A stretch of 64,000 nt of DNA, taken from an uncultured Acidimicrobiaceae bacterium (lineage in GTDB: Bacteria > Actinomycetota > Acidimicrobiia > Spongiisociales > UBA5794). The notes under the pieces were generated by a model, which searched no databases, was not told where the DNA came from, and was given only the letters and a program-made list of their open reading frames with translations. The stretch is from assembly GCA_964579415.1 (NCBI GenBank), contig CAZOGW010000003.1:7759-71758 (forward strand), read 5' to 3'. Position numbers and translations under genes: made by a program. The first letter of the stretch is position 1; each line of letters opens with the position of its first letter. Below are positions 2,814 through 42,334 of this stretch, one piece after another.

Positions 2814-2854
2814 TTGGCGCACTGGCAACTCAGCCCTGGAGCTAGGGCGTGTCT

Positions 2855-3391: not shown

Positions 3392-3425
3392 GACCCCCGA
3401 ATCGAGCGGATCCTTGTAGTTCGAC

Positions 3426-9010: not shown

Positions 9011-9679
9011 ATGCTCCCGGACACACCCGTCGAGGCACTCGGCGCTCAAGCGCACGGTGTTCGCGGTCTGGTCGTCGACGTCGTCCGTTCCCGGCACGAC
9101 AAGGCGGCAGAAGCCCACCAGGTCTCGGGGTCGCGGTACGGGCTGGGCTTCGGCAGTCAGTGGCGTGACCTTCTGGACGATACGCACGATGCGCTGATCG
9201 AGCGCGGGTTTCGGTCGCACAGGCTGGTTCCCGGCGGTCACAAGGTCGGGGTTGTCAACGACTGTCTGGTCTACGTGTGGCGCGTCCCGGACAACGCGAA
9301 CGCGGTACGGGACTTCGCCTCCAGCCCGACGCGCCAGAACGGCTTCGTCGCGCCGCCGCCGCCAGCGATGCTGTGGGAGGGCCTCCTGCCTGAGGAGGCT
9401 GCGTCTGCGGAGGTTGCGAGCATGATGGAGGCGGTCCGCGACACGATGCCTCTGGTCCTCGTCATGGTCTGGTCGACGCCGCGGCAGCTCCTGTCTATAG
9501 AGTGGGCCGTCGCCATCCTGGACGACTCAGGCAAGGTCGAGCTGCGAGGGCAAGAGTCGCTCTGGGAGCCGGAGCTCGTCGCCGACGACGTGTTCTCGGG
9601 CGTCGAGTCCTTCGACAGCGGCACGCCAGAAGGCCCAACGATCGAGCCGCGCGAGCGGGACAGGCCTTCGGATGCGTGA
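9011..9679 (+). CDS. Hypothetical protein (222 aa); first gene of a three-gene plus-strand module
   Basis: The Shine-Dalgarno-like sequence GAGGAGG lies 10 nt upstream of the ATG. Its end overlaps the start of the next gene by 8 nt. GC-rich third codon positions. No motif recognised. Confidence 0.5.
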   Translation: MLPDTPVEALGAQAHGVRGLVVDVVRSRHDKAAEAHQVSGSRYGLGFGSQWRDLLDDTHDALIERGFRSHRLVPGGHKVGVVNDCLVYVWRVPDNANAVRDFASSPTRQNGFVAPPPPAMLWEGLLPEEAASAEVASMMEAVRDTMPLVLVMVWSTPRQLLSIEWAVAILDDSGKVELRGQESLWEPELVADDVFSGVESFDSGTPEGPTIEPRERDRPSDA

Positions 9680-10796
9680 CGACAATCCCGGGCTGTTCGA
9701 CCTGACCGGATCCGAGCAGGCGCACGGCCGGTTCGAGCCGGCGCGGCTCACCCAGGCCCGTGCCCGCCGCGGGTTGAGCAAAACGGACCTGGCCGCTGAG
9801 GTCGGAGTCTCGGCCTCGGCGGTGGGGCAGTACGAGGCAGGAGTGAACTCGCCTCGGCCCGACGTGGTGAACCGCTTGGCGCGCGCACTTACGGTGCGCG
9901 CGGAGTTCTTCAACGTCGGACGCCCGCTGGCGCGCGTCGACACCGTCCACGCGCATTTCCGCAGCCTGCGTTCGGCACGCGTCAGCGACCGCCAGAAGGC
10001 TCTGGCAACAGCGACCTTGGTCTGGGAACTGACGTTCGCCCTCGAGCGCTACGTCAGGCTGCCAGATGTCGACCTGCCCGTCCTCCCCGCCGGCACGCCG
10101 CCGCCGGTGGCCGCAGCTGCACTCCGCGAGCACTGGGCCTTGCCGGACGGTCCGGTCAAGCACCTGGTCGCCACTGCGGAGGCTCACGGCGTAGTCGTCG
10201 CGGTGCGTCCTCTTCGCGAGATCGACGCCGTGGACGCCTTCTCGGTTGTTATCGTCGAGCGGCCGATCATCATCACGACGCCTCGCCGAAGCGAGAACGT
10301 GTTCCGGCACCGCTTCTCGATCGCGCACGAGATCGGGCATCTCCTCCTGCATCGCGACACAGAGGAGTACAGCGCCGTGATCGAGAAGGAGGCCGACGAG
10401 TTCGCTGCCGCCTTCCTGACGCCGGCGGCCCCCATGGACGCGGCGTTGCCACAGCGGCTCGACCTTTCGGCACTGGACCGGCTCGGCAGGACATGGGGCG
10501 TGTCGCCGCATTCGCTCGTGCGTCGAATGGTCGAGCGCGGTCGTACTACGGAGTCGTCGGCGCGACGGGCTTACCAGCGCCTGGCCGCCGCTGACGATCC
10601 GCTGTCTGACCCGACCAGCGCGTACCCGGGGGAGATGCCATCGCTGCTGAAGAAGGCCGCGGAGTTGGCAGGTGAGCATGGCGCGGGAGTGCCCGCTCTC
10701 GCCCAGGCGCTGAAGCTCAGCGCCGCGCAGGTGAGTGATCTGCTCGGCGACGCAGACCACCGCCCGATTCTGCACCTCGTCGGCAGCGAGGACTGA
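9672..10796 (+). CDS. HTH_XRE DNA-binding domain fused to ImmA/IrrE-family zinc metallopeptidase (COG2856/DUF955)
   Basis: N-terminal RLTQARARRGLSKTDLAAEVGVSASAVGQYEAGVNSPRPDVVNRLARAL is an XRE-type HTH. Central FSIAHEIGHLLLH plus downstream EADEFAAAFLTP is the HEXXH...E signature of ImmA/IrrE. Confidence 0.8.
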   Translation: MRDDNPGLFDLTGSEQAHGRFEPARLTQARARRGLSKTDLAAEVGVSASAVGQYEAGVNSPRPDVVNRLARALTVRAEFFNVGRPLARVDTVHAHFRSLRSARVSDRQKALATATLVWELTFALERYVRLPDVDLPVLPAGTPPPVAAAALREHWALPDGPVKHLVATAEAHGVVVAVRPLREIDAVDAFSVVIVERPIIITTPRRSENVFRHRFSIAHEIGHLLLHRDTEEYSAVIEKEADEFAAAFLTPAAPMDAALPQRLDLSALDRLGRTWGVSPHSLVRRMVERGRTTESSARRAYQRLAAADDPLSDPTSAYPGEMPSLLKKAAELAGEHGAGVPALAQALKLSAAQVSDLLGDADHRPILHLVGSED

Positions 10797-10801
10797 CCGC
10801 T

Positions 10802-13543
10802 GTGGCGTCGGTGCAGAAGCAGGTGCAGAGCGCCGACGGCGTGATCTGCCAGAGCATCGCCAGTCTGGATGGCCACCGTGGCTTCGTCTCCCAGACCGTC
10901 CTCGCGCAGCTCCGAAACCTGGTCGAGGGCCTCATCGTCTGGGCGTGCCTCGAAGATCCGGCAGCCGAGTTCCACTACGACCAGGTGGGGTCGGCGCTGG
11001 TCGAGGTCAAGGCGAAGGCGAAGTTCCGCCTGCTCGGCAGGTTCCACAACCTGCTCCAGGCCAGCACCTCGCACTACACGCTGGACGGGGATCCGTCCGA
11101 GCGCCTGATGCTCAAGTACTACGAGTACCTGCTACGCACGCGCGATCTCGCGCTGAAGCAGTTCGGCATCGCGATCCTTCGCAACCTTGAGCTGTTCCCA
11201 GTGGATCTCGACCCGTCCCTGCGCGAGTACCACGAGAAGATCGCGGAGCGCATCGAGGCAGTCCGGGGGACGCCGACGGAGCCTCGCCGCGAGCGCTACT
11301 ACGTCCACAGCTCGCGACCGCTCTTCGTCGGTGGCCGGATCTACTACGAAGTCACGCTTTCGCTCGCCCACGACTGGAGGAGCAAGTTCGACCGCACGAT
11401 CGCGTTCACCGACGTCGATATGTCCGACAAGTACGCGGCGTACCTGTACCTGTCAAGCGAATCGATCACCGTGCTCGGCCAGACCATGCCAATCCTGATC
11501 ATCCGTGCCTGGGAGGTCTCGATCCGCCCGTGCGAGCTCAAGAACTTCGCCCGCATCTTCGGCCAGGAGTCGCGAATCCAGTCGAGCCACACCGAATACC
11601 GCAACCTGATGCGGTATTTGACGACGACCCGCTCCAGCCTCCTTGATCTCGTCGATATGGCCGACGCGAGCTACAACCAGATCCGCGCGTGGGCTCTCCG
11701 TGACTCGCGCGGATCGGCGGCGTTCTTCCCCGCGCTCGACCAGGCCCGGGAGATCATCCGCGCGAACCGCCCAGGCTCGCGCGTGCTGCGGTACCTGATG
11801 CTTCAGATGCGCAACCAGGTCATCAAGGCTCAATCCGACGCGACACCCTGCAGCTGGCTGTCAAATCTGCGGCTGTCATGGAGCTGTCGGCCGTTCGACA
11901 CTATGCCCTTCTGCACCTCACCGCGTGGACACAACCCACGCTTCGCTGACCTCGCGGACAGCCTGGATGCAACCGGCCGTGAGCACGAACTGCTGGCACG
12001 CCGAGTGAGGACCAACGTCGAGCAGCACGGCGCGATCTACACCCCGGCCGGGGAGCTTGAAGATCTCGGCGACGTGGACCAGCTGATCGCCAAGCACAAC
12101 CGCCTCCTGCCGCCGACCGACCGGCACGCCCCTCGGAAGCTCAAGCACGAGAACGGGCACGTGTTCATCGTCGGCTACGAAGACGACACTGTCGCGATCA
12201 TCGAGAAGCTGCAGGAGGCCGCCGGCGAGGGCCTCGACCGGCATGCCGACGACGTGCAGGACTGGTTGGACGCGAACCCGGGCATGATCGACGACCCCTC
12301 GAAGGCCGAGGCTCTGAAGGCCCTCTTCGAGCAGTCGAACGTCGCCCTCGTCGTCGGAGCAGCCGGCACGGGCAAGTCGACCATGGTGAACCACATCGCC
12401 AACTACTTCTCTCCCAAGAGCAAGCTCTTCCTCGCACACACGAACCCGGCCGTCGACAACCTGAAGCGACGCGTCGACGCGCCCAATACCGACTTCAGCA
12501 CGATCACCAGTCATGTCAAGAAGAGTGAGGACTTCGGCTCCACCTACGACGTGCTGGTCATCGATGAGTGCAGCACCGTCGACAACGCGAGCCTGCTGAA
12601 GGTGCTCAACTGCACCACGTTCGATCTGCTCGTGCTCGTCGGCGATGTCTACCAGATCGAGTCGATCCAGTTCGGCAATTGGTTCAGCCTCGCCCGCTCG
12701 TACATCCCGGAAGGCTCAACGTTCGAGCTCACAAAGCCGTTCCGAACTGACAATGCTGAGCTGCTCACGCTGTGGCACAGAGTGCGCAACCTAGATGATC
12801 GAATCGAGGAATCGCTGTCGAAGAACGGCTACTCGATGGTGCTGGGCGAGGATTTGTTCACGCGCCGGAGCGACGACGAGATCGTTCTCTGTCTGAACTA
12901 CGACGGCCTTTACGGCATCAACAACGTCAACCGCTTCCTGCAGGCGGGCAACCCAAGCCCAGCCGTCGCCTGGGGGGAGTCGCTCTACAAGGTCGGCGAT
13001 CCCGTGCTATTCAACGAGACTGACCGATTCCGGCCCGTCATCTTCAACAACATGAAGGGCACGATCGCCGCCATCGATCGCGCGCCCGGACGGATCACGT
13101 TCGACGTCGACCTCGAACGAGAGGTCACCCCAGGCGAAGTGGCCTGGACAGAACTGCGCTGGATGGCGGGGTCGACAGTCCAGTTCGATGTCTACGAGCG
13201 CGCGAACAGCGACGAGGACGATGACACGCTCAACACCCTCATCCCGTTCCAGACCGCGTACGCGGTGTCGATCCACAAAGCCCAAGGCCTCGAGTACGAC
13301 TCGGTCAAGGTCGTCATCACCGATGCCAACCAGGAGCGGATCTCTCACAACATCTTCTACACGGCGATAACCCGAGCACGCCGGCGGCTCGGGATTTTCT
13401 GGACCCCGGAGACGCAGCAGAGGATCCTCAGCCGGCTCGCCGTACGAGAGAACACGAAGGACGAGAGCCTGCTGAGGGCCCGGCGCGGTGTGACTCCACT
13501 CGCTGGTCGGCAAAGGCGGCAGAAGGGGCGGCCGTCGGTGTAG
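10802..13543 (+). CDS. Large protein: unknown ~520-aa N-terminal region fused to a RecD/TraA-like SF1 helicase (AAA_30/UvrD_C_2-type)
   Basis: GTG start 6 nt after the ImmA-like stop. Walker A VVGAAGTGKSTM, Walker B VLVIDECSTV, C-terminal AVSIHKAQGLEYDSVKVV and YTAITRAR motifs. The N-terminal half has no recognisable motif. Confidence 0.8.
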   Translation: MASVQKQVQSADGVICQSIASLDGHRGFVSQTVLAQLRNLVEGLIVWACLEDPAAEFHYDQVGSALVEVKAKAKFRLLGRFHNLLQASTSHYTLDGDPSERLMLKYYEYLLRTRDLALKQFGIAILRNLELFPVDLDPSLREYHEKIAERIEAVRGTPTEPRRERYYVHSSRPLFVGGRIYYEVTLSLAHDWRSKFDRTIAFTDVDMSDKYAAYLYLSSESITVLGQTMPILIIRAWEVSIRPCELKNFARIFGQESRIQSSHTEYRNLMRYLTTTRSSLLDLVDMADASYNQIRAWALRDSRGSAAFFPALDQAREIIRANRPGSRVLRYLMLQMRNQVIKAQSDATPCSWLSNLRLSWSCRPFDTMPFCTSPRGHNPRFADLADSLDATGREHELLARRVRTNVEQHGAIYTPAGELEDLGDVDQLIAKHNRLLPPTDRHAPRKLKHENGHVFIVGYEDDTVAIIEKLQEAAGEGLDRHADDVQDWLDANPGMIDDPSKAEALKALFEQSNVALVVGAAGTGKSTMVNHIANYFSPKSKLFLAHTNPAVDNLKRRVDAPNTDFSTITSHVKKSEDFGSTYDVLVIDECSTVDNASLLKVLNCTTFDLLVLVGDVYQIESIQFGNWFSLARSYIPEGSTFELTKPFRTDNAELLTLWHRVRNLDDRIEESLSKNGYSMVLGEDLFTRRSDDEIVLCLNYDGLYGINNVNRFLQAGNPSPAVAWGESLYKVGDPVLFNETDRFRPVIFNNMKGTIAAIDRAPGRITFDVDLEREVTPGEVAWTELRWMAGSTVQFDVYERANSDEDDDTLNTLIPFQTAYAVSIHKAQGLEYDSVKVVITDANQERISHNIFYTAITRARRRLGIFWTPETQQRILSRLAVRENTKDESLLRARRGVTPLAGRQRRQKGRPSV

Positions 13544-14262
13544 ACGTCAGGGCAGGCTCCGGCCCCGAGTAACCTTCGCGATGGGTGTGCGATCGACCAC
13601 CCGTTCCCGCTGATCAATGTCGTGATCGACCTGGCCCGGACCGATGCAATGCCCAGGCTGGGACCGTGGACGACCTGCGCGATGGCCCGACCCGCTGATG
13701 CGCGCCCGCCGGTGGGCGCCCTGCCCTGTTCAGGCACCCACTGGGCCGGCATGGGCAGAGCCACTGGTCACAGATTGCCTTGGAGTGGGTGCGGGCCGGC
13801 CGGCCGTCGATCGCAGGTGCTGTGCGATCCGTGGGTGCTGTAGCGGACAGAGAGATCCGTAGCGGCGGCGTAGCGGGTCTGGTGGCCGGTGGCCGCTACA
13901 CCCTTGGGGTCCACGGCTCAAGGGCCGCAACCGGTTCGCCGGGACAGATCGAGCACGACCGGGGCCGCGGGGGCGGTGCCCAGCGCCGCCATTCTGCCCG
14001 TCCTGCAACGGCTCCGAGCGGCCAGCGCGGACGTGTAGCGCGTGTAGCGCCTGGTGGGGGGCAAGGGCGAGGACCCGGGGATACGGGAGCACCCAGGGGC
14101 AGTTGGGGCGATCACCCAGTACGCGCCTCGACTGCTGGCCCGGGTCGCCACCGTGTAGCGCGACAGCTTCACCCGATTCCTGCCCGTGAGCGTCCTTGCC
14201 GGGCCCACCAGTGGCACCCGCGGCGAGGATCGGCCCCCGGCGGGCCTTCGCGGTGGCCCACT

Positions 14263-14501
14263 GGTCACACTTTGGTCACAAACGCCTACGCAATAGGTGC
14301 CACAGAGGGCACCCAATGGAATTTCGTGAGCACGGAACGCACCGTATGGACGCGGTAACACCGATCTCACTTCTCTTGTAAACAGGTGGTTCCCGGTTCG
14401 AGTCCGGGCGTCGGCTCCGTATCGTCGCAGGTCAGAGGCATGTTGCGGCTCGTGAGTGGCCACCGTCTGGGGGTCCTTGGTCACAGATTGGTCACAAACG
14501 C
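14263..14501 (+). repeat. Direct repeats TGGTCACA-N4-GGTCACAAACGC (14263-14286 and 14478-14501) and a related copy CCACTGGTCACAGATTG (13761-13777), plus an 18-bp palindrome GGTGCCACAGAGGGCACC (14296-14313). They sit in a 1.1-kb non-coding spacer that also carries recurring GTAGCG motifs
   Basis: Read directly from the sequence. The repeats flank the tRNA 3'-end remnant. No credible ORF in 13560-14700; the listed ORFs there are low-complexity and rich in R, G and A. Confidence 0.6.
14385..14418 (+). other. tRNA 3'-end remnant (T-arm plus acceptor 3' strand); putative att core of an integrative element
   Basis: cccgg-TTCGAGT-ccggg T-stem/loop (14392-14408), then 7-nt acceptor strand cgtcggc, discriminator t and cc. 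No complementary 5' acceptor strand, D-arm or anticodon arm upstream, so it is not an intact tRNA. Confidence 0.5.
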
Positions 14502-14713
14502 TCTGGGATGGAGCGCCCTCGATGGACCGTTTGAGGTCCTGGGGACAGGCGAAGGTCGGTGCGCGAAGAACGACGCGCACACCTGGTCGGGTCTACTTGA
14601 CCCCGTTCATGATGGGGCGGCACACATCTGCTCCTGGGCCGTCTTGTCGGACCCCGCGGCTAGGCTCGTAGGACCATCCGTGCGTCGCCACAGCTAGGAC
14701 GGGAGTCAAGTCA

Positions 14714-15823
14714 ATGGGGGTCCTCTGGCCTCTCGAGCCTCACACGGAGGCCAAGCACCGTCTCTACAAGAGATACCTGGACGCGTGGTTCCCCATCTTC
14801 CTGCAGCAGGGGTGGGTCGATCGGGTGACCTACGTCGATGCGTTCGCCGGGCCTGGTGAGTATGAGGGCGGCGAGGAGGGCTCGCCGTTGTTCGCGATCG
14901 ACCGCCTGCTCCACCATGAGGCTCGTCAGCGCATGAACCTCACTCGCAATCGCGTCACGATGCTCTTCATCGAGGGTGACCAGGCCCGGCACAAGCACCT
15001 GACCGACCTGCTTCTGGCGCGGTTCGGCCCCCTTGATCGGCTACCTGTCACGGTGATCGTGATGCAGGGCCGCGCCGAGCTGGACACGCTGCCACTCCTG
15101 ACCCAAACCGGGGCGTGGGGCTCCCCAATCCTCGCCATCTTCGACAGCTGGGGGAACGTAGGCGTCCCCTGGGAGCACTTGCAGGCGATCGCTGCTAACC
15201 CATCCAGCGAGGCCATCGTGACGTTCGGCGCGAACTGGTTCAGCCGCCGCGAGCGTGAAGAGCCACGGAAGTTGGATGTCGTGTTCGGCGGCTCCCAGCA
15301 CTGGACCGCCAGCGACAAGGCGCTGCAGCCAAGCGACCGCTGGCGGTTCTGGCTCGAGACATACCGCGCCGCCATGCTCCGAGCTGGGTTCGACTACTGC
15401 CTGCCTTTTCAGGTTGTCCCCCACACGGGCCAGCCCTTGGATCTGGTCTTTGGGACCGGGCACCATCGGGCTGTCGAGGCCTTCAAGGATGCGATGTGGA
15501 ATGTCGATCGCTCGGACGGAATGCGGTTCAGCGATCCCCGAACCACGATCGCCAAGGAGGCCGCCATGGCAGCCGTACAGCCCACCCTCTTTGAAGATCC
15601 CGACTCCCCCGACGCCGAACTGCTCGGCTTCGTGGCAGACAGCCTCCAGGATGGGCCGAAGTCACTGGAGAACGTCCGGGACTTCCTGTTGCGCGAGACC
15701 GCGCGTTGGCTCCCGAAGCATGCAAAGGAAGCAGTGCAGTACCTGATCGACGAGGGCCGCGTTGTGCGGGATCCTGCCACCGGTCGACTCACAAGGACAA
15801 GCGTTCTGCGCTTGGTGGGCTAG
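14714..15823 (+). CDS. tcmP: TcmP (three-Cys-motif partner protein)
   Basis: N-terminal MGVLWPLEPHTEAKHRLYKRYLDAWFPIF matches the TcmP family hallmark. Convergent with, and overlapping by 4 bp, the Gp37/Gp68 partner gene. Confidence 0.75.
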   Translation: MGVLWPLEPHTEAKHRLYKRYLDAWFPIFLQQGWVDRVTYVDAFAGPGEYEGGEEGSPLFAIDRLLHHEARQRMNLTRNRVTMLFIEGDQARHKHLTDLLLARFGPLDRLPVTVIVMQGRAELDTLPLLTQTGAWGSPILAIFDSWGNVGVPWEHLQAIAANPSSEAIVTFGANWFSRREREEPRKLDVVFGGSQHWTASDKALQPSDRWRFWLETYRAAMLRAGFDYCLPFQVVPHTGQPLDLVFGTGHHRAVEAFKDAMWNVDRSDGMRFSDPRTTIAKEAAMAAVQPTLFEDPDSPDAELLGFVADSLQDGPKSLENVRDFLLRETARWLPKHAKEAVQYLIDEGRVVRDPATGRLTRTSVLRLVG

Positions 15824-16563
15824 CTGGCAAGTTCGGGCATCTCGTCCCACGTGCGGCCGTCGAGTTCACGGCCTCCACTCTTGGATCGAATCCCGCCCCA
15901 CTGCTTGAAGAAGAAGGGAGTGCGCGCCGCGACGCACTGATCGCGGATGTCCCGGATCCATTCAGGTTCGACGGGCCGGGCGCTGAACCCGCTCTCGCCA
16001 CCAGCGATGACCCAGTCGACGCCATCGAGGGGGAGTTCCGGGAGCTCGTTCAGCAGCGGCTCACACGAAAGGAAACGCACCGCTGCTGGTACCTTCGCCA
16101 GATCGTGGATCCGGTCGTAGTGGTCGGGCGACTCGACGCTCACACCCATCCACACGTTGCTGGGCCACTCGAGCTTGTCAGCGATCCTGGTCAGCCGGTG
16201 GGCCCGCTTCGTTAGGACTTGGTAAGTGTGGTGGGGAGTGTCGGCCATGACCGCGAACACCTGCTGGATGAAGTCCATCCCGACCCGAGCATGGAACAGG
16301 TCGCTCATCGAGTTCACGAAGACCACCCGTGGTCGTTTCCACGAGTACGGGATGAGGAGCGCATCGGGGTGAGCGGTCACGCCGAAGCCGGGTCCACTGG
16401 TACGCGCGTCGCCGTCGTTCTGGTACTTGGGATTACCCATTGCCTTAAGTCGCTTCGCGAGCGTGAGCGCGTAGCAGTTGTCACATCCTGCGGAGACACG
16501 GTCACACCCGGTCGTTGGGTTCCAGGTGGCCTCCGTCCACTCAATCGCACTCTTGTCGCCCAT
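15820..16563 (-). CDS. Phage Gp37/Gp68 family (PF07505/DUF5131) three-Cys-motif protein; canonical partner of TcmP
   Basis: MGDKSAIEWTEATWNPTTGCDRVSAGCDNCYA carries the family's conserved N-terminal W-N-P-x-x-G-C...C-x-x-C motif. Confidence 0.85.
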   Translation of the reverse strand: MGDKSAIEWTEATWNPTTGCDRVSAGCDNCYALTLAKRLKAMGNPKYQNDGDARTSGPGFGVTAHPDALLIPYSWKRPRVVFVNSMSDLFHARVGMDFIQQVFAVMADTPHHTYQVLTKRAHRLTRIADKLEWPSNVWMGVSVESPDHYDRIHDLAKVPAAVRFLSCEPLLNELPELPLDGVDWVIAGGESGFSARPVEPEWIRDIRDQCVAARTPFFFKQWGGIRSKSGGRELDGRTWDEMPELAS

Positions 16564-17594
16564 GACCTCACCGTAGTTGGTCGAACATGCGTTCGATAGT
16601 GAGCGCCACTCTGTACCTCACTGGTCTTCTTGGCTTCCGCGCAGAGATTCGTGCGATGACAGCGCGCGGTGGGGTGGATCTTCTCTCGGACAAGCCAACA
16701 CGCGTTGGGCCTGGGGCGCGAGCCGCTCATGTACCCCGCGGCTTGACCTCCCAAGCTGCAGCTGGGCAGTGCGTGCACCAACTCGCGACCACCACCCCGC
16801 GGAGTGAGTCTTGAGCTGGCGGCCATCGGTGGCCCTGTCCGGGGCCCTGGCAGGGGCGGCGGCGTTTCATCTGGCCCACTTCTGGTGATGAGGCGGTCAC
16901 AGCACCTCGGCGACTTGTCCAAGTCTCCGGGCATGAGGTGGCTGTAGGTACGGCGCATCGTCTGTTCGTCGTGGCCGTGGTAGGCGGCGATGACCTGGTC
17001 GGAGATGCCCTTGGAGCGCATCAGGGACACGGAGCTGTGACGGGCCTCGTGGAGGGTCAGCTCCCGCACCTTGGCCTTGCGGCACAGCCTCTTCCAGTGC
17101 TCGGAGTAGAGCCGCGGTCTCATCGGCTCCCCGATTTCGGTGATGGCCAGGTAGCCGTCGGCCACGTGCGCCTCGCCGAGGTGCTCGGCGTGCTTCGCGC
17201 GCATCTCCTTGAGCGCCTCCACGTAGCTGGTGGGGATCGAGAGTTGGCGCGCGCTGTTGTGGCTCTTGGGGTCGCCCTCGGTGACGTTCTTGGTGTCGAC
17301 GAGGACGCGGCCGCGGGAGATGGTGACGATCCCATGTTCGAGGTCCACGTCGCTCCAGCGCAGCCCGAGGACCTCGGACCGGCGGAGCCCGGCCAGGCTC
17401 AGCAGCCAGCAGGCGGACAGCCATTCGTCGGCTGCGGCGGACTTGAGTGCGGCGCGCTCCTTGTCGGTGTGCGCAGTCCGCCCGGTGGGGGCCTCGCCGC
17501 GGGGTTTGATCTTGCGCCCGGGGTTGCTGGCCAGGATTGCCCGATCGAGCTCGGCCAGTTTGCCCCTTCGGAGATGGTCCGGAATTCGCTCCAC
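16377..17594 (-). pseudogene. Tyrosine recombinase/phage integrase remnant. The catalytic domain is present (about 16950-17594) but the N-terminal arm/core-binding domain is missing, and the ORF runs on about 190 codons past the catalytic Tyr into low-complexity sequence
   Basis: LSLAGLRRSEVLGLRWSDVDL...HEARHSSVSLMRSKGISDQVIAAYHGHDEQTMRRTYSHL carries the R..H..R..Y catalytic residues. The frame upstream of the GTG at 17594 closes within 17 codons at a TGA (17643-17645). The tail PPPLPGPRTGPP... overlaps the Gp37/Gp68 gene. Confidence 0.6.
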
Positions 17595-17803
17595 TGGTTC
17601 CGCGACTTGATGCTTTCGCCGGGGCCGGCTCCGCGTGGAGCATCAGGCTCAGGCGCCCGCTGCTGGCACTTGCCGACCGAGACGGGCGCATCCTCGACGG
17701 GGTGCTGGCTCCGACGACGTCGGCGGCTGCGGATGTCCTGGACGGGTACACCAGCTGGTGGCGCCGCGGATAGTGACCGCGACATCAGTAGCCAGGTCGA
17801 CCG

Positions 17804-20800
17804 ATGTTCCAGCCCCACGCTTCGCGAGCGCCTGCCGTCGCGCTTCCGCCAGGGGCGCCGCCCAATAATCCCAGCGTGACGGCCATCGCGGAGGCCCGCC
17901 GGACTTGGATGGCGTACGACCGTGCCTTCCACGTCCAGGCTGACTCGGTGTCGCTGGTCGCCGAGCTCATGCTTCCGGCATCTGACCTCGCCGAGATGGT
18001 CAACGCTCTCACCGTTATCGGCACGCAGCCGCCCGCCGCGACAAAGGCGGACGTGAAGCACGGCGCCACGGCGCTGGCGGTGCTGATGCCCAACGTGTGT
18101 CGCGAAGACTACGGCGAAGCGACCTTCTGGCCCCACTTTTGGGACCGGATCGGTGTCCCACAGCCCCGCCGGCAGGCACTCCAGACCGCCTTCGGCGAGA
18201 CCTTCCTCGAAGGACTCAAGCGCGCGCGGTGGCCCGCGTTCGATGACGTTGGACAGAAGTACCTCGCCAACATCCTCATGCATGCCGGCGTCCCCGATGC
18301 GCTGCTTCCGGACTGGTTCGAGCTGCTGGACGCGGCGACCCGCGCCGTGACCTTGGAGCCCGACCTCGTCACCCGTTGGATCAGGGATAGAGCGGGTGTG
18401 GGAGGCCTGCCGTGGGTGAACGTGCCCCTGCGCCGGCTGGTCTTGCATGGCGGCCCGTTCGCGGCGGATCTGATCGAGCGCAGCCTGACGTTGCTGGACC
18501 TTGTCCGATCGGGCTCCGACCGCGACCCGGCCTTCCTGGGCCTCCCTCCGGCCTACCTCACAGCTGCCGAGACCCACTGTCGCGCCCGCGCTGCTCTACG
18601 GGCGACCGGGGGCATCCGGGCAGCCTCGGCTCCCGTGCTGCGGCTGGTGCCGGAGGAGGGTCGAGTCGAGCTCGCCCTGCCACAGCTGGAAGACGTCGTA
18701 GACACGTTGCGCTGGCTGGTCAAGATCGAGCAGCGCACCGTCGAGATCGTCCCGCATCGGCTCTGGGGCGGCGATCGGGTCCAGTTCGCAGGGGCAACAG
18801 TCCCGGTGGACACACCGACACGGTCCATTGAAGTCCGTGCCATCGGCGCGGATCGAGCCGCCCTGGTACCGGTCGTTCCTGATGACCTGCCGTTGCTCGC
18901 CTTCGACCGAAGCGGTGCGGCTATTCGGGTAGCTGAGGGACTGCCAGCCGAGCCGGTATGGCTCCTGGGACCTCCGTCGGGGTCGGCTGCCGGTCCCCAG
19001 CTCAGCGTCGTGGGAGGCCGCCTGATGGCCGACATGGGGTCACCCCTGGGATGGGCCGGCTGGCCGCTTTCCCTGTGGGATCTCGGCGGCGCCGAAGCGG
19101 TCGAGGTGGGGGATCACACAGTAGGTCTCACACGCCGCACGCGTGCCCAGATCGAGTCGGCGCCTGCCGGGCATGTCGAGGCCGCCTCGATCGCCGGGCT
19201 GCCCCTGCATACGCAGCGTCCGGCCGTCAGTCTCCCGGCTGGCCACGCACAGTGGTCGGTGACGGTCAGCGACTACCAGACCGGTCAGATCGTGACCGAG
19301 CTCCGACACCAGGGTGAGGCTATGAGCCTGGACCCGTTCGCGGGGATGCCCGCCCCCATCGTCGGCGCATTCACGATCGTTGTGCGTGGACCTTTGGGCC
19401 GCGGCGCCAGCCGCACTTTCGCGCTCGCCGAGGGACTCAGCGTCAAGGTCGAGCCACACTTCCGGACCTTCGGACCTGACGGGCTGCGACCTGCCCGGGC
19501 CGCGATCGCCTTGCCTGGGGGCACGACCTCGTCTGCTGTGGTGGAGTTCGCCGCGGCTGAGCGACTCAGCTCCGTGCTGGTCACCGGTGCTGAGGGGCGG
19601 CAGGAGCGCATTGTCATCCAGCCCCCCTCGCTCGCTGTCGCGATCCAAGCTGAGGGCCAACCGCCGGGAGCGTGGAGCAACGGCCCTATCACGGTGCTGA
19701 AAGAGGACTTGGTCCATACGCACTTGCTCTTGCGGATCGGGCTCGGAGCACAGCCGGAGCTGGCCGTGTGCAGCGGAAACAGCGCGGTTCAAACTCTGGA
19801 CCCGATCTCGGTGACAGCAGAGCGGAACGTCGCATACAAGCTTGCCCGGATCGTCGACTCGGTTGATCACCTTGGGGCCAATGGACTCGTGCTCGGTCGT
19901 ACGTCCGACGATCCGGGGGTCCTGGTCGCGCGAATCGTTCCGCGGAAGCTGGCCACAGGAATCGCGGTCGACGACCCGGGGCTCCGGTTGGTCGATCCAG
20001 GCAGCGGTGACCTGGAGGTTGCGCTGTGGAGCACGGGCGAGCCTTGGCGTCCACCCATCGTCCGACGCTGCGACCAGGACGGTCGCATTGCGCTGCTCCC
20101 TGGCGATGTTCTCTCCGGAAGAGTCGTCGCCGTGCCCCGAGTCAGCGACCCGTGGAGCCTGCCCGACCCGTTCCCGCGATTCCCCTACCGGTTCAGCATG
20201 CTCGTCAGCGATCCCATGTCGGCCGAGGAGGAGTCGACCATTGCGCCCGCCGATACCTCGGTTGAACGGGCGTGGGCCACGGTCCTGCTCAACGTGGTGC
20301 TGCCGGGCTCCGTCCAGGCCAGCGGGCTCGCGGACGCCCGCCAGGCCCTGGATGCGCACGGACCGGAGGCCCTCGCTGCACTATCGACGTTCGCCCTGCC
20401 GCCAACGGAATCAGCAGCGGCCCTCGTCCGCACAGGCGTCGCTGGGGCATGCTCGAATGTCGCGGGCGATGACCTCAGCATCGCTGAAAGCCTTCGCGCA
20501 GATCCTGTGGCCGCTTCCCTGGCGCACCTGCCGACGGTGATGGCGCGACCCGACGACTTTCCGGAAGCACGCCTCGCGGTGCGCGACGCGTTGGGCGATG
20601 CGGGGCTGGCCTTCCTCGACACCGGTGTGGACGATCACATGGCTGCTGGCGCTTACGGGGATGACCCCTCGCTGATCGCGCTCGCACGACTCCGGAAGGC
20701 CGACGTGGCGCGGTTCGAGACGTTGCTGGCGTCCATGGCGCTGCGGCCGGTCGGGCTGCTCCACCCTGACAACCGGGTTCTCCGGTCGGTCGAGATCTTG

Positions 20801-21157
20801 GAGCGTGTCGGAGCCGAGCGCGTTCGGATCCTTGCCAAGGACTCGCTCAAGCTCGTGGTGACCGTCCGGGCATCACTGGCGAAGTCAGGGTTCGACCGGG
20901 CCGCTCACGCAATCGAGGAGCGAGGCGTGTCCGACGGTACGCCGTGGCTCAACCTCTCGGCCGCGTCGCTCGCCTGGTGCATAGCCCTGCGATACGGGGC
21001 TCGGGGACATGAGCTTGAGAGGCTGAGCCCACATCCTCAGATGTCCTCCTGGCGCGAGAACGCGCATGCCATAGCACCACTACAAGCCGTTGACCTCGTG
21101 CTGGCGGAGATCCATGCCTCGCACGACCTGCCGATCAACGATGGGAGACGACGGTGA
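17804..21157 (+). CDS. Large hypothetical protein (1117 aa), translationally coupled to the downstream helicase+DUF1998 gene; DruH-like by position (Druantia type III)
   Basis: No recognisable motif. Its stop TGA (21155-21157) overlaps the GTG start (21154) of the next gene as GTGA. Size and context match DruH. Confidence 0.6.
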   Translation: MFQPHASRAPAVALPPGAPPNNPSVTAIAEARRTWMAYDRAFHVQADSVSLVAELMLPASDLAEMVNALTVIGTQPPAATKADVKHGATALAVLMPNVCREDYGEATFWPHFWDRIGVPQPRRQALQTAFGETFLEGLKRARWPAFDDVGQKYLANILMHAGVPDALLPDWFELLDAATRAVTLEPDLVTRWIRDRAGVGGLPWVNVPLRRLVLHGGPFAADLIERSLTLLDLVRSGSDRDPAFLGLPPAYLTAAETHCRARAALRATGGIRAASAPVLRLVPEEGRVELALPQLEDVVDTLRWLVKIEQRTVEIVPHRLWGGDRVQFAGATVPVDTPTRSIEVRAIGADRAALVPVVPDDLPLLAFDRSGAAIRVAEGLPAEPVWLLGPPSGSAAGPQLSVVGGRLMADMGSPLGWAGWPLSLWDLGGAEAVEVGDHTVGLTRRTRAQIESAPAGHVEAASIAGLPLHTQRPAVSLPAGHAQWSVTVSDYQTGQIVTELRHQGEAMSLDPFAGMPAPIVGAFTIVVRGPLGRGASRTFALAEGLSVKVEPHFRTFGPDGLRPARAAIALPGGTTSSAVVEFAAAERLSSVLVTGAEGRQERIVIQPPSLAVAIQAEGQPPGAWSNGPITVLKEDLVHTHLLLRIGLGAQPELAVCSGNSAVQTLDPISVTAERNVAYKLARIVDSVDHLGANGLVLGRTSDDPGVLVARIVPRKLATGIAVDDPGLRLVDPGSGDLEVALWSTGEPWRPPIVRRCDQDGRIALLPGDVLSGRVVAVPRVSDPWSLPDPFPRFPYRFSMLVSDPMSAEEESTIAPADTSVERAWATVLLNVVLPGSVQASGLADARQALDAHGPEALAALSTFALPPTESAAALVRTGVAGACSNVAGDDLSIAESLRADPVAASLAHLPTVMARPDDFPEARLAVRDALGDAGLAFLDTGVDDHMAAGAYGDDPSLIALARLRKADVARFETLLASMALRPVGLLHPDNRVLRSVEILERVGAERVRILAKDSLKLVVTVRASLAKSGFDRAAHAIEERGVSDGTPWLNLSAASLAWCIALRYGARGHELERLSPHPQMSSWRENAHAIAPLQAVDLVLAEIHASHDLPINDGRRR

Positions 21158-24100
21158 CGAGCACGTCCCTGGACGCCATGAGCGCGAGCGCGCATATAGA
21201 GTCGGACTATCGGCGGTACGTGGGCTCGCTCATGGAGCCCCGTGAGGCCCCCCTTGCTGACGCGCTGGCAAGGGCCACCAGAAGTCATCCGATCGCAAAA
21301 GGCCCCTACCTCGAGGTCACCCCCCCGTATCGACGGGGCCGAACGATTCGACAGCTCATTGCTGAGGGACTCCTCCCCGCTGGGTTCGACAGATTGGGCG
21401 GCCCGGCTTTGCCGCTCGACCGGCCTCTCTACGCGCATCAGGAGGAGGCGCTGCGCAAAGTCCGGGCCGGGCGAAACGTGATTGTCTCCACCGGGACCGG
21501 TTCGGGAAAGACCGAGTCCTTCCTGCTTCCCATCCTGGCCCACCTCGTCTCCGAAGAGGAGGCGGGAACGCTCGGACCGGGAGTCCGCGCGCTGCTGCTA
21601 TACCCGATGAACGCGCTGGCCAATGATCAGATGAAGCGCCTGCGGGCCGTCCTGGCCGACCACCCCGCCATCAGCTTCGGACGCTACGTCGGCGACACCC
21701 GGGAGGAACCGAAGGATGCGAGGGCGGCCTTCGCGGACATCAACCCCGGCGAACCCCTGCTGGCGAACGAACTGCTGTCGCGCAAGGAGATGCGTGCCAC
21801 TCCACCGCACCTGCTGCTGACCAACTACGCGATGTTGGAGTACCTGCTGCTCCGGCCGGCCGACCTGGACCTGTTCGAGGGTCATGGAGCGTCGACCTGG
21901 TCGTTCGTCGTTGTCGACGAGGCCCACGTGTATGACGGCGCTCAAGGGGCGGAGATCGCCATGCTCCTGAGGCGGCTGCGCCATCGTGTGCGACCCAACG
22001 ATGGTTTGCGTTGCATCGCAACGTCAGCGACCGTGGGCGACCGCGGGGCCGAGCCGCGAGTGACGGCGTTCGCGGCCGACCTCTTCGACGCCCCGTTCGA
22101 GTGGGTTGAGGGACAACCGGGTCGCCAGGATCTGGTCGTCTCTCAACGCGTCCATCCTCCAACAGGCACATGGGGACCGATCAGCTTCACATCGTGGGCC
22201 CAGTTGGCCTCGGCATCCGATCCAGACCCCCGAATCCTCGAGTTGGCCGCCCAGTTCGGCCGACCTGGGATGAGCGTGTTCGAGGCGCTCTCCACCGAGC
22301 GGACCATCGCACGTCTGCGCGACTCGCTCGTCGACCGTCCCAAGCGTGCCGACGTCTTGGCGGGCGACCTTGTCGGTGACGCCGACGATCCCCTGAGGAC
22401 CCTGCACCAGGTCATCAGCGTGGGCAGTCGTGTCACCGACGAGTTCGACTCGCCACTGATCTCCGCCCGCTACCACCTGTGGTTGACGAGCATCGAAGGC
22501 GCGTTCGCGTGCCTGCACCCGACCCAGCCGCATGTGACGCTCTCGCGTCATGAGATATGTGAGACGTGCTCGCGTCCCATGTACGAGATCGCCGCGTGCA
22601 AGCGCTGTGGAGCGGTCCATGCGCAGGGCGTTCGAATCACCGGTCAGGGTCGCGAGAAGCTGGTGCCCCGGGTGCGCCTTCAGGACGCTCCCACTTGGAT
22701 CGTCCTGGAGACCACCTCGGTCGAGGATGAGGATGAGCAGGAGGCCAACGTTGCGGCCGAGGCTCCCCAGATCCGCGACGCGGCGTTCTGTTACGACTGC
22801 GGCACACTCTCAGGGCCCGAGGCCGGCACCTGCGCAGGCTGTGATTCGAACACGCTGCGACATGTGGCGCTCATCGAGGGCAGGCGCCGCGAGCTTCGGA
22901 TGTGCCGAGCATGCGGAGCCAGGTCCAGCGGGATCATCCGTCCGCTATCCGCGGGCGCCGATGCGACCACAGCAGTGCTCACCACCTCGCTTTACGAGCA
23001 GCTGCCACCTGGTCCGCAAGATATTCGGGACAACCCAGGGGATGGCCGTCGCCTCCTGGCCTTCAGCGACTCCCGGCAGGCGGCGGCATACTTCGCTCCC
23101 TACCTGCAGACCACGTACGGGCGCATTCAGCATCGGGCAATGGTCCTCGAGGGAGTCCGACGCGCAGAGGAATTGGAGCGCGGCCCGGCGCGGCTCCGGG
23201 ACGTCATCTCCCATACCGCTGATGCCGCCTCGGAGGCCGGGTTCTTCTTGTCACGTGACAGTCGTCAGCTGAAGGAGCGACAGGCCGGTACATGGCTCTC
23301 CGCTGAGCTGGTGGGAGTGGACGACCGCCAGTCCCTGGAAGGGCTCGGACTGCTCCGCGTCGAGTTCGAGCCACTCGACGGAACACCGTTGCCCCGCGGG
23401 TTCGCGGATGCGGGTCTGACCGACGAAGTAGCGCTAGGCGTCGTGGCCGAGCTCATCCGATCGGTCCGCCTGCAAGGGGCGATGAGCATGCCGGCGGGCG
23501 TAGCCGCCGATGATCCGCTCTTCGAACCTCGGGTCGGGCCCTTCTACATCAGGGAAGGCGCAGCCGAGGTCAAGCGGAAGGTGTACTCGTGGATGCCGAC
23601 GAAGGGCCGCAATCGACGCCTCGACTACGTAGAGCGGGTATTGGCCCGCCTTGACTCCCGTGCGGACCCCAAGCGCCTGCTTCAGGGCATCTGGGCGTTC
23701 GCCTCCGATCCTCGGGCGATGAGATGGATGACCTCGGCCACCGTTCGGGTGCTGGGGGCCGTGTGGCAGGTCGACTCGGGAAGCCTCCTGCTGTCCACGC
23801 TCAAGCCGGGTGCGTCGGTCTGGCGGTGCTCGTCGTGCCGGCGCCTCGCATCGGCAAGCGTGGCGGGCGTCTGCCCCGCGATGGGTTGTTCCGGTGAGTT
23901 GCAGGCCCTTGTGACGCCGACCGAGAGGGAGGAGACGAACCACTACCGCCTTCTCTATCTCGCCCAGCGGCATATACCCCTCTCCGCCGAGGAGCACACA
24001 GCCCAGTGGACGAGCGAGGAGGCGGCCGCCGTCCAGCAGCGGTTCCTCCGCGGGGAGATCAACCTGCTGTCGTGCTCCACGACGTTCGAGCTGGGCGTGG

Positions 24101-25800
24101 ACGTCGGTGACCTGCAGAGCGTGGTCCTGCGCAATGTGCCTCCGACGACCGCGAACTACGTCCAGCGGGCTGGGCGAGCCGGGCGACGGGCGGAAAGCGC
24201 CGCGCTGGTCCTCACGCATGCGGCGCTGCGATCTCACGACCAGAGTCGCTTCGCCCGGCCTGAGACCATGATCAAGGGCGAGGTGCGCACCCCGGCCATC
24301 CCTCTGACCAACGAGCGGATCGATCGACGGCATGCCCACTCGGTCGTGATCGCAGCCTTCTTCGCCGAGCAGTCACGGCAGCATGGCCGCGTATGGAAGA
24401 AGGCGGGCGAATTCTTCGTTCCAGACGACGATGCGCAATCGGGGCCGGCGCTGTTGCGGGAGTTCTTGACTCCACCCCCGCAGGCGCTCGTCGACTCGGT
24501 CCGGTCGATCCTCCCCGAGCCGGTTGCCCAGGAGATCGATCTCGATGGCTCAGGCTGGGTCGACGAGCTTCTCGCACGTGTCCTGACGATCTCCGAGGAG
24601 CTCCACACAGACCTTTCCTACTTCGAGGCTCAACGGCAGGCGGCATTCGAGGCACGCAAGGACGGCCTCGCCCAGCAGTTCGGCCGCATCGTGAGGACGC
24701 TTCGCGAGCGGGATCTCATCGGTGTCCTGTCCCGGAAGAACGTCCTGCCGAAGTACGGCTTTCCCGTCGACGTCGTGGAGCTGCGAACGGCGCACGTCGT
24801 CGAGGGCGGCGGAAGCAGACTCTCTCTGGACCGGGACCTCACCATGGCAATCAACGAGTTCGCGCCTACCGCGCAGATCGTGGCCGGTGGAAGCCTCTGG
24901 ACGTCAGCCGGCCTATACCGCCTACCGCAACGCGGATTGGAGACCAAGTTCTACGCGGTCTGTGGCGGCCCGGCAGGGTGCGGGAGGTTCAAACGGAGCA
25001 ACGACAGGGATGAACTCGGTGCTCAGTGCGATGTGTGTCAGAGGGATTGGCGTGTCAGCCAATGGGTGGTCCCCGAGTTCGGCTTCGTGGCCGATCGCCA
25101 GCCCACGAGAGCGGGGGCCGAGCCACCCAAGCGGATCTGGAACAGCGCCACCTATATCCAATCGATCGGCGCCGATGTGACCGAGATGTCCATCGACCTC
25201 CCGGGTCGGAGCCTCTCACTCACGTTCGGGACCCGAGGCGAGCTCGTCACGATCAACGAGGGCTCCACTGGTGCTGGTTTCCTGATCTGTGAGTGGTGCG
25301 GGCGCGGCATGGAACTCACGGGCACGAAGATCCGAAAGCACAAGCGGACTTTCAAGGACGAGGACTGCGAAGGGCCATTACGCCTCCAATCGCTCGCGCA
25401 CCACTACCAGACGGATGTGCTCGCGATCGACGCCGGGATCGACCGATGGGCCGACAGGGGCGCAGTGCTCTCCGTCCTCTACGCGATCCTCGAGGCTGGA
25501 GCGATGGAGCTTCAGCTCTCACGTGACGACATCGACGGGACCGTAGAAGTGACGGGCAAAGGCCAGCGGTTCGTGCTTTTCGATACGGTCCCTGCCGGAG
25601 CAGGCGCCGCTATCTCCATCGCCCATCAGCTGGGCCCGATCCTCGACAAGGCGCTCACCCGTGTCACCAACTGCGAATGCGGGGAGGAAACCAGCTGCTA
25701 TACGTGCCTTCGAAGTTTCAGGAACCAGCGCTTCCACGAAGTGCTGAGCCGCGGAGCAGCGAAGGACTTCCTCGGGGGGCTCCTCGGGGTCGCGAGCTAG
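21154..25800 (+). CDS. DruE-like (DrmA/B-like) SF2 DEAH-box helicase with C-terminal DUF1998 zinc-ribbon domain (1548 aa)
   Basis: Motif I VIVSTGTGSGKTESFLLP, Ia LLLYPMNALANDQ, II VVVDEAHVYDG, V-VI LLSCSTTFELGVDVGDLQSVVLRNVPPTTANYVQRAGRAGRR. The C-terminal Cys clusters CGGPAGCGRF...CDVCQ and ICEWCG, and NCECGEETSCYTCLRSFRNQRFHEVLSRGAAKDFL, match the DUF1998/MrfA Zn-binding hallmark. Confidence 0.85.
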   Translation: MTSTSLDAMSASAHIESDYRRYVGSLMEPREAPLADALARATRSHPIAKGPYLEVTPPYRRGRTIRQLIAEGLLPAGFDRLGGPALPLDRPLYAHQEEALRKVRAGRNVIVSTGTGSGKTESFLLPILAHLVSEEEAGTLGPGVRALLLYPMNALANDQMKRLRAVLADHPAISFGRYVGDTREEPKDARAAFADINPGEPLLANELLSRKEMRATPPHLLLTNYAMLEYLLLRPADLDLFEGHGASTWSFVVVDEAHVYDGAQGAEIAMLLRRLRHRVRPNDGLRCIATSATVGDRGAEPRVTAFAADLFDAPFEWVEGQPGRQDLVVSQRVHPPTGTWGPISFTSWAQLASASDPDPRILELAAQFGRPGMSVFEALSTERTIARLRDSLVDRPKRADVLAGDLVGDADDPLRTLHQVISVGSRVTDEFDSPLISARYHLWLTSIEGAFACLHPTQPHVTLSRHEICETCSRPMYEIAACKRCGAVHAQGVRITGQGREKLVPRVRLQDAPTWIVLETTSVEDEDEQEANVAAEAPQIRDAAFCYDCGTLSGPEAGTCAGCDSNTLRHVALIEGRRRELRMCRACGARSSGIIRPLSAGADATTAVLTTSLYEQLPPGPQDIRDNPGDGRRLLAFSDSRQAAAYFAPYLQTTYGRIQHRAMVLEGVRRAEELERGPARLRDVISHTADAASEAGFFLSRDSRQLKERQAGTWLSAELVGVDDRQSLEGLGLLRVEFEPLDGTPLPRGFADAGLTDEVALGVVAELIRSVRLQGAMSMPAGVAADDPLFEPRVGPFYIREGAAEVKRKVYSWMPTKGRNRRLDYVERVLARLDSRADPKRLLQGIWAFASDPRAMRWMTSATVRVLGAVWQVDSGSLLLSTLKPGASVWRCSSCRRLASASVAGVCPAMGCSGELQALVTPTEREETNHYRLLYLAQRHIPLSAEEHTAQWTSEEAAAVQQRFLRGEINLLSCSTTFELGVDVGDLQSVVLRNVPPTTANYVQRAGRAGRRAESAALVLTHAALRSHDQSRFARPETMIKGEVRTPAIPLTNERIDRRHAHSVVIAAFFAEQSRQHGRVWKKAGEFFVPDDDAQSGPALLREFLTPPPQALVDSVRSILPEPVAQEIDLDGSGWVDELLARVLTISEELHTDLSYFEAQRQAAFEARKDGLAQQFGRIVRTLRERDLIGVLSRKNVLPKYGFPVDVVELRTAHVVEGGGSRLSLDRDLTMAINEFAPTAQIVAGGSLWTSAGLYRLPQRGLETKFYAVCGGPAGCGRFKRSNDRDELGAQCDVCQRDWRVSQWVVPEFGFVADRQPTRAGAEPPKRIWNSATYIQSIGADVTEMSIDLPGRSLSLTFGTRGELVTINEGSTGAGFLICEWCGRGMELTGTKIRKHKRTFKDEDCEGPLRLQSLAHHYQTDVLAIDAGIDRWADRGAVLSVLYAILEAGAMELQLSRDDIDGTVEVTGKGQRFVLFDTVPAGAGAAISIAHQLGPILDKALTRVTNCECGEETSCYTCLRSFRNQRFHEVLSRGAAKDFLGGLLGVAS

Positions 25801-38407: not shown

Positions 38408-38626
38408 GGGCTGCCCTCCGTTGAGGCACGGCAGTCGCACTGTGCAGTGCCGAGGCCCCTCGATTCCTGCTGACCAAGTATTCCGCTGGGTCGCTCGGCC
38501 GATGACCTTCAGGGTGCAGTTCAGTTCTTGAGCTTGCGCGGTTGACGTGGTCGGCCGACCCTCGGCGCCGCGCGTCCGGCTCCCCACTGCGCCTAGCCTC
38601 GGAGGCCCGAGTCGCGGCCGCATGCC

Positions 38627-41092: not shown

Positions 41093-41093
41093 G

Positions 41094-42323: not shown

Positions 42324-42334
42324 GAGGCAGCGCG

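Follow-up and report, generated by a model that had tools for sequence, protein, structure and literature searches.

A 64-kb stretch of the uncultured Acidimicrobiaceae contig CAZOGW010000003.1 (64,000 nt, hereafter the window) carries the 3' part of a tRNA-Thr(UGU) gene, a core flanked on both sides by short direct repeats of one type and followed by a damaged tyrosine integrase gene (int). We propose, with a probability of about 0.65, that the tandem integration of two elements of one type at tRNA-Thr(UGU), both of them gutted since, left this arrangement behind as a P-core-P' junction. The junction would then be a fossil attachment (att) site of a lambda-type (heterobivalent) tyrosine integrase that used a tRNA-Thr(UGU) gene as its target. 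An earlier annotation of the same DNA, made from the letters alone (the original prediction), had recognized the footprint of a decayed integrative element here, and that diagnosis stands for one or more tRNA-targeting elements. The site can no longer recombine by itself; the window contains no Xis, Rep or second core.

The tRNA-Thr core and its two arms

Screening of the whole window against Rfam at the gathering threshold gave no match, and neither did a search of positions 13500-14750 at E ≤ 10. In truncated mode, cmscan of 14362-14440 aligned positions 19-71 of the tRNA model RF00005 with 19.2 bits, spanning the anticodon arm, variable loop, T arm and 3' acceptor strand. The fragment is longer than the 34 nt first described, and the absence of its 5' half was confirmed. 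A 25-nt string from the T arm and acceptor, scanned through one genome per species, was found at 120 loci at least. Among the matches listed, this string was the 3' end of tRNA-Thr, namely of tRNA-Thr(CGT) in Thermoleophilia and of tRNA-Thr(TGT) in metagenome-assembled genomes (MAGs) of Actinomycetes, Nanopelagicales, Micrococcales and Frankiaceae. Within the same set, positions 14375-14416 (CTTGTAAACAGGTGGTT...GGCT) were identical to intact tRNA-Thr(TGT) genes at seven loci (L012, L021, L023, L053, L075, L085 and L112); the window agreed with the TGT type from the anticodon loop onward and then ran into CCGTATCGTCGCAGGTCAG, which is common to the closest loci. A 5'-less fragment at locus L091 matched positions 14377-14437 without a difference (61/61), and the left edge likewise fell in the anticodon loop in the fragments at L091, L092, L191, L194-L196 and L216. 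From the truncated-model match, the identity to the TGT type and the match to L091, the fragment is real and derived from tRNA-Thr(UGU). Relatives thus do have a cognate tRNA with a matching 3' end, whose identity the original prediction had not given.

The spacer around the core (13544-14713) is gene-free, as had been noted before, with no open reading frame (ORF) of coding-like GC content at third codon positions. The core pattern was absent from IMG/VR, the genes that flank tRNA-Thr at related MAG loci had no counterparts in the window, and the spacer parts 13544-14261, 16564-16896 and 17539-17803 had no DNA homologues among the fetched loci.

Five copies of the octamer TGGTCACA occur in the 64 kb, all on the plus strand and all within the 730 nt around the core (13765-14496). 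The direct repeats reported by the original prediction on both sides of the core are two 24-nt copies of TGGTCACA-N3-TGGTCACAAACGC, identical at 22 of 24 positions, and the pattern GGTCACA-N4-GGTCACA that they contain was observed twice compared to 0.02 occurrences expected in the window. Upstream, the TGGTCACA sites stand 113 and 102 nt from the first core base (14375), and downstream they stand 62 and 73 nt from the last one (14416). To this repeat list we add a half copy further upstream, possibly an outer P-arm site (Table 1).

Pairs of TGGTCACA were also present at L023, L092, L191, L194-L196, L215 and L216 and in 18 metagenome contigs; at L023, L092, L215 and L216, the motif pair of the P' arm stood at the same offsets after tRNA-Thr or its core. 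Genome by genome, tandem pairs of 8-10-nt repeats, about one helical turn apart, were found at +60 to +80 after tRNA-Thr or its fragments, with a repeat type specific to the locus: TGGTCACA at L023 and L092, GTGCCTAC at L085 and L091, TTGCCTAC at L021 and L112, and a GTAACTAC-like type at L075, L092 and L012. The tRNA-Thr fragments carried an additional repeat pair at -110 to -130.

The 18 metagenome contigs were retrieved with the pattern CGCAGGTCAG-N30-55-TGGTCACNNNTTGGTCACA. In these contigs, the module was located directly 3' of tRNA-Ser(CGA), Leu(CAA), Leu(TAA), Gly(TCC), Tyr(GTA), Gln(CTG) or Thr(TGT), altogether after 13 intact tRNAs of seven isoacceptor types, with an int gene 6-600 nt beyond it on the opposite strand. 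A scan of IMG/VR for the tandem pair alone yielded 66 contigs of 24-68% GC. When ORFs for the integrase (Int) were located with a profile built from 102 relatives of the window integrase, the motif lay at most 300 nt from the 3' end of such an ORF at 12 of the 66 viral and 4 of the 18 metagenome loci, and at most 1 kb away at 8 of the 18 metagenome loci. The order int, arm pair, tRNA fragment, arm pair, which is the layout of an attP site, was seen in the viral contigs L142 and L148. That TGGTCACA recurs beside tRNA 3' ends and homologous integrase genes, in contigs of metagenomic and viral origin, argues for its role as an arm-type site, and by comparison the GGTCACA repeats behave in the way that the original prediction had supposed.

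Positions 14262-14439 were 76-77% identical over 166-181 nt to one end of a ~7.5-kb element at L191 and L194-L196, and at all four loci the matched end is the int-distal one (P arm plus core). The element order is int, HTH_31, HTH_17, DUF3631, NikA/MobC-like, ..., Fic, TGGTCACAcagTGGTCACAAACGCC, core, and the integrase is 65% identical to the remnant in the window. Since the counterpart of the left arm is the int-distal end in elements with a 65%-identical integrase, we assign it as the predicted integrase-distal P arm and the right one as the predicted integrase-proximal P' arm, both of the TGGTCACA type. At L191 and L194-L196, the core is followed by the GTGCCTAC-type arm of a different element, which marks these junctions as tandem. 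Homology between element copies ended ~255 nt past the int stop (L191, 7605-8100; L194, 11111-11800), and two groups among L191/L192 and L194-L198 had different chromosomal neighbours (SHOCT/LPG synthase versus MOT1/Moa).

Upstream of the P arm, 7 of the 33 GTAGCG copies in the window fall within 330 nt, a density that none of 10,000 random placements reached (p < 1e-4), so that the recurrence of this motif, too, was correctly seen. GTAGCG motif clusters lay 220-350 nt upstream of the tRNA-Thr cores at L091 and L216 and just 3' of the DUF3631 gene at L194-L197, L191/L192, L085 and L092. The cluster might represent a left-over cis site, speculatively a candidate replication origin or an oriT-like transfer origin. 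No remnant of a DUF3631 gene was present in the window, and tblastn with the backbone proteins of the relatives recovered no remnants of Xis, HTH_31, DUF3631, NikA/MobC or Fic there. TGTAGCG/CGCTACA clusters at L194 (7723-7846), L085 (5416-5519) and L092 (5522-5619) belong to elements with different arm-type repeats. The perfect 6+6 palindrome GGCCGGCCGGCC at 13794, formerly listed as a feature of its own, was rejected as a signal; it is one of 38 such 12-nt palindromes in the window, as expected by chance.

Table 1 Features of the junction, the integrase remnant and the inserted cassette (positions in the window)
Feature	Position	Strand	Description
Distal single TGGTCACA site (CCACTGGTCACAGATTG)	13761..13777	+	~610 nt upstream of core; 15/17 identical to repeat family D2 reference copy
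(G)TGTAGCG cluster	13840..14160	+	Seven motifs, six direct and one inverted; consensus GTGTAGCG
P arm	14262..14374	+	Tandem arm-type sites (putative) TGGTCACActtTGGTCACAAACGC (14262-14285) and spacer up to core
Core	14375..14416	+	tRNA-Thr(UGU) 3' part, anticodon loop to discriminator; without 5' half
P' arm	14417..14501	+	CGCAGGTCAG (14426-14435) and tandem arm-type sites (putative) TGGTCACAgatTGGTCACAAACGC (14478-14501)
Mobile two-gene cassette	14639..16596	.	Convergent genes, overlapping stops, 1.96 kb
tcmP	14714-15823	+	TIGR04474, 171 bits (cut-off 53)
DUF5131 (Gp37-Gp68 family)	15820-16563	-	PF07505, 334 bits (cut-off 28.9)
LexA (SOS) box-like palindrome TCGAACATGCGTTCGA	16581..16596	.	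Cassette right end; 18 nt upstream of DUF5131 start
Tyrosine integrase pseudogene	16897..17538	-	Catalytic domain only; ORF as read 17594 to 16377 (405 aa)
Breakpoint	17538..17539	.	Integrase homology stops, Druantia-like block starts (78-aa ORF, then 17804-21157, DruE 21154-25800)

The damaged integrase and the inserted cassette

The integrase remnant matched PF00589 with 69 bits. Its arm-binding and core-binding domains are gone, and the catalytic motifs LRRSE, HEARHS, YHGH and RTYSH (R...HxxR...H/W...Y) are all kept. The nearest relatives, proteins of 369 aa, were 95% (P0002), 83% (P0003) and 65% (P0007) identical, the first value covering residues 150-363; the remnant itself corresponds to residues ~157-363. 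Full-length relatives have arm-binding, central and catalytic domains, with PF14657 as the N-terminal domain in the integrase of L212. DNA homology to L193 was restricted to 16895-17538. The first 156 codons (5' 467 nt) have been replaced by unrelated DNA that leads into a Druantia-like gene pair, and the N-terminal 150 aa of the integrase were found nowhere in the window. The loss of the N-terminal domain (residues 1-156) described in the original prediction was therefore confirmed. The stop codon, thought to be lost as well, is still there as TGA at 16897-16899: the ending ...VADVL-TGA of the relatives can be read here as VAEVL-TGA, and a 1-nt deletion near 16915 puts this natural stop out of frame. 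Because of the shifted frame, the ORF runs on into DUF5131. The gene is thus a pseudogene twice over, by truncation and by frameshift, which supports the earlier view that the integrase is inactive. Variable genes just past the int stop were seen in close integrase relatives too.

Two convergent genes, tcmP and DUF5131 of the 'three-Cys-motif' pair, lie between the P' arm and int. The original prediction had called them a phage-type pair. Their identity as a pair was confirmed by the profile scores (Table 1). A phage-type backbone was not, TcmP being found in only 5 of 50,697 phage records, all of them Gordonia phages in which it is annotated as a methyltransferase; DUF5131 is assigned to a PHROG of unknown function. 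With 103 bits for PDC-M30A and 352-363 bits for PDC-M30B/M41B, the two proteins matched the PADLOC entries PDC-M30 and PDC-M41, which are candidate systems only.

From 14639 to 16596, the DNA was 82% identical to L218 and L219, and homology stopped abruptly at both ends. The nearest TcmP homologues (89% identical) were found in quite different contexts: the cassette occurs in an ICE-like (integrative and conjugative element-like) region at L218 (4761-6716), in a mobilisable element with TrwC and another integrase at L219 (9972-11884), and beside an RHS toxin at L220 (6000-7857). Given such sharply bounded homology in four unrelated contexts, TcmP/DUF5131 is a separately mobile 1.96-kb cassette that was inserted into the stretch from the P' arm to int. 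Were it removed, 437 nt would separate the P' arm from the int stop, inside the range of 6-600 nt observed in the relatives. The cassette showed neither a recombinase of its own nor terminal repeats, and an 11-nt repeat near it, ACCCCGCGGCT, was rejected as it occurs at chance level and not at the cassette ends. Neither protein had a relative among solved structures; the literature searched yielded no functional study of TcmP/DUF5131, with mentions confined to the gene tables of two papers, and a megablast of the region against plasmids returned a weak DUF5131 match only.

The right end of the cassette is formed by a perfect palindrome, TCGAAC-N4-GTTCGA, the sole such site in the window, which fits the Streptomyces LexA consensus tCGAAC-N4-GNNCGa (PMC9380542). 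Perfect LexA boxes were present at the equivalent place at L218 (6701-6716) and L220 (7875-7890), so that three out of four independent cassettes carry the box 18-19 nt upstream of the DUF5131 start. This suggests that the candidate defence pair may be SOS-induced. A self-contained cassette with a conserved LexA box would make DNA-damage induction a concrete hypothesis for this candidate defence system.

Proposed tandem integration and competing histories

In a working element, the N-terminal domain of the integrase would bind the TGGTCACA arm sites, and the central and catalytic domains would bind the tRNA-derived core and cut within it, presumably at the anticodon loop, where the tRNA identity starts, or to the right of it. 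The core is the tRNA 3' part that the elements carry so that the tRNA is rebuilt upon integration. To its right, the P' arm has CGCAGGTCAG and two TGGTCACA sites one helical turn apart and is followed by int pointing toward the arm, as in the relatives; to its left, the P arm has the same tandem sites and is preceded by the GTGTAGCG cluster, which lies beside replication and mobilisation genes in complete relatives. Two elements with the same arm type, integrated in tandem at tRNA-Thr, would have created the P-core-P' junction, and both would then have decayed. Only the non-coding tail of the left element would have been kept, and of the right element the P' arm and the 3' 58% of int. The TcmP/DUF5131 cassette would have entered the spacer of 437 nt that separated the P' arm from the int stop, and int would have been cut at 17538 through arrival of, or deletion up to, the Druantia-like block, with the frameshift as a later event. 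The likely order is thus integration at tRNA-Thr, cassette insertion and truncation by the Druantia-like block. Well preserved though it is, the junction is an ordinary scar of integrative elements in a defence island, and its value is mainly that of an annotation aid, which helps to date and to order how the island was assembled.

Tandem arrays at tRNA-Thr were found in relatives, with two cores 5.1 kb apart at L092 and junctions with unlike arms at L091 and L194-L196. Tandem integrative and conjugative elements of actinomycetes (AICEs), integrated into one tRNA, are described in a review as leaving a 44-bp att site between them (PMC2440964). It is because such arrays are seen at tRNA-Thr in the nearest relatives and have been described for AICEs that the balance tips toward a tandem origin. 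Several observations weigh against it. Since the 64 kb hold neither an intact tRNA-Thr nor a second core copy above chance, degenerate copies included, we infer the tandem history rather than show it. The canonical layout is also not universal in the subfamily, as the int-proximal ends in the closest complete relatives (L191/L192 and L194-L198) have no tRNA, core or TGGTCACA sites. Furthermore, the TGGTCACA repeats are putative arm-type integrase sites by position and co-occurrence only. Finally, both arms are of the same type and share an AAACGC extension, which would fit one uncut attP equally well.

Such a single uncut attP is the alternative that we take most seriously, even if we regard it as unlikely. 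The contig would then be, or stem from, an element that is extrachromosomal or was captured in another way; or else illegitimate recombination between defence blocks would have captured 3.7 kb of a circular element, an arc with the GTAGCG cluster, P, core, P', cargo and the 3' part of int. The GTAGCG cluster, P arm, core, P' arm and int 3' end are indeed exactly colinear with the circular form that L194 and L085 imply, the two-sided layout is likewise found in the viral contigs L142 and L148, TGGTCACAAACGC is common to both arms, and no housekeeping gene, tRNA or second core was recognized in the 64 kb. However, replication, partition and transfer genes were not found in the window, tandem junctions are directly seen at tRNA-Thr in the nearest relatives, and a dead integrase without any backbone genes leaves no element to use the attP.

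The original prediction had seen the junction of an integrative island, possibly the boundary of the defence locus at 17.8-34.4 kb or of the block at 2.8-13.5 kb. On this view the site would be a single, plain attL or attR, and TcmP/DUF5131 and int would belong to the island backbone. A tRNA fragment near a truncated integrase in a defence-rich region suits this view, and tRNA-gene islands commonly end in such fragments. Nevertheless, we now judge it highly improbable. The core has arm sites of one type to its left and to its right, in the P-core-P' order of an uncut attP or of a junction in a tandem array, the left arm being homologous to an int-distal end and the right arm to int-proximal arms. 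The defence locus starts at the integrase breakpoint (17538/17539), 3.1 kb to the right of the core, and the last gene of the other block ends 830 nt to the left of the core, so that the att site itself forms the edge of neither block; TcmP/DUF5131, in turn, is an independent cassette. Least credible, and largely refuted, is a history without any recombination in which the repeats are transcription-factor operators for tcmP or its neighbours and the tRNA-like piece is an unrelated pseudo-tRNA. While the right-hand repeat does lie ~210 nt upstream of tcmP, and a simple promoter/terminator scan, uninformative as it was, revealed no promoter-like site, the tcmP cassettes at L218, L219 and L220 lack TGGTCACA, the cassette homology starts at 14639, downstream of the repeat, and in dozens of contigs the repeats are found together with tRNA 3' ends and integrase genes.

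In viral contigs whose GC content ranged from 24 to 68%, the TGGTCACA octamer formed tandem pairs, and L132, an IMG/VR viral contig of 40% GC, contained at least seven head-to-tail TTGGTCACAA units (9050-9250). CGCAGGTCAG was located 10-20 nt past the tRNA 3' end at L007, L048, L052, L091, L194 and all 18 metagenome loci; it is common to elements that differ in arm repeats and target tRNAs, and it resembles a degenerate arm site (aGGTCAgA). Neither the TGGTCACA arm motif nor the post-tRNA CGCAGGTCAG motif was found in the literature in a limited search, which is no proof of novelty. It is conceivable, albeit quite doubtful, that the TGGTCACA tandem pair and CGCAGGTCAG define a very broad integrase family with a fixed arm-site code, hosts of 24-68% GC and a core retargeted to at least seven tRNA species, and that orphan P-core-P' sites could be used in trans by a resident full-length member, as landing pads for the accretion of defence cassettes. 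Integrated elements of this family can be found beside many tRNAs with a simple signature to search for: tRNA 3' end, CGCAGGTCAG, ~40 nt, TGGTCACA-N3-TGGTCACA and then, on the opposite strand, int. This signature and the TcmP/DUF5131 cassette may be more useful than the junction itself.

Genomic setting and comparison with known systems

The window has a GC content of 62-71% and is actinobacterial in character. Pfam scans recognized no housekeeping genes across the 64 kb and no Tra or Rep, with replication, partition and transfer genes not found, and ARAGORN detected no tRNA genes. Defence genes crowd the region around the att remnant and the integrase pseudogene, including PDC-S53, RmrA-like, DruE, a type IIG restriction-modification enzyme, HKD-Snf2, SIR2 and an OLD-like ATPase. 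To the right, the Druantia-like block has its left edge at the integrase breakpoint and comprises a 1117-aa protein without family match (17804-21157) and a DruE-like helicase (21154-25800; 593 bits), a pair that looks like type III Druantia. It is followed on the minus strand (28025-34446) by the type IIG enzyme (704 bits) and then an HKD/PLD plus Snf2 helicase. To the left, 9011-13543 holds an RmrA-like protein with HTH and M78 peptidase (285 bits) and an unannotated upstream partner, and after the RmrA-like gene a 913-aa SF1 helicase that corresponds to the PADLOC candidate PDC-S53 (1312 bits).

More defence-like genes were located at 36641-45067 and 55157-56866, encoding an AAA_15/OLD-like ATPase, an HSP70 + TPR protein, a double AAA+ ATPase and a SIR2_2 protein. 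At 1-2951 (minus strand, running off the window) and 48826-52356 (plus strand), two giant proteins are encoded that combine PD-(D/E)XK nuclease, RNase H-like and SF1 helicase domains. They are paralogues with 32-43% identity, and a large inverted duplication at the window edges was rejected accordingly. Two insertion sequence (IS) remains were found: an IS5-family element split into DUF4096 and DDE ORFs (2855-3860, minus strand) and an IS110-type transposase fragment (53672-54298, plus strand).

Heterobivalent (lambda-type) tyrosine integrases that target tRNA genes are known, for example, from mycobacteriophage L5 and actinomycete elements. The site in the window resembles att sites of the lambda/L5 type in its core, a tRNA 3' part that starts in the anticodon loop, in the short direct repeats ~11 nt apart on both arms, and in an int gene that adjoins the P' arm and is transcribed toward it; full-length relatives of the integrase also have the arm-binding N-terminal, central and catalytic domains. 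In contrast to those sites, it is an orphan, with an integrase that is frameshifted and lacks both N-terminal DNA-binding domains, and with no Xis and no partner att copy in 64 kb. Similar to tRNA-linked defence islands, which grow by tandem accretion and then decay, the region combines an att remnant and an integrase pseudogene with defence genes and IS elements; here, however, the window does not contain the anchoring tRNA, so that linkage to a tRNA locus is only deduced. As in the PADLOC pair PDC-M30/PDC-M41, both cassette proteins are adjacent and score above cut-off, and in the window their genes are convergent with overlapping stops, forming a 1.96-kb unit with a LexA box at DUF5131. With AICEs, the junction shares the actinobacterial host, the tRNA 3'-end target and an attP directly downstream of int. 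It differs in that the set of int, xis, replication and FtsK-like transfer genes was not found, nor any AICE backbone in the window, and in that genes for HTH_17, HTH_31, DUF3631, NikA/MobC-like and Fic proteins are present in the complete relatives. These relatives have the appearance of small mobilisable elements, not of conjugative AICEs with an FtsK-like Tra.

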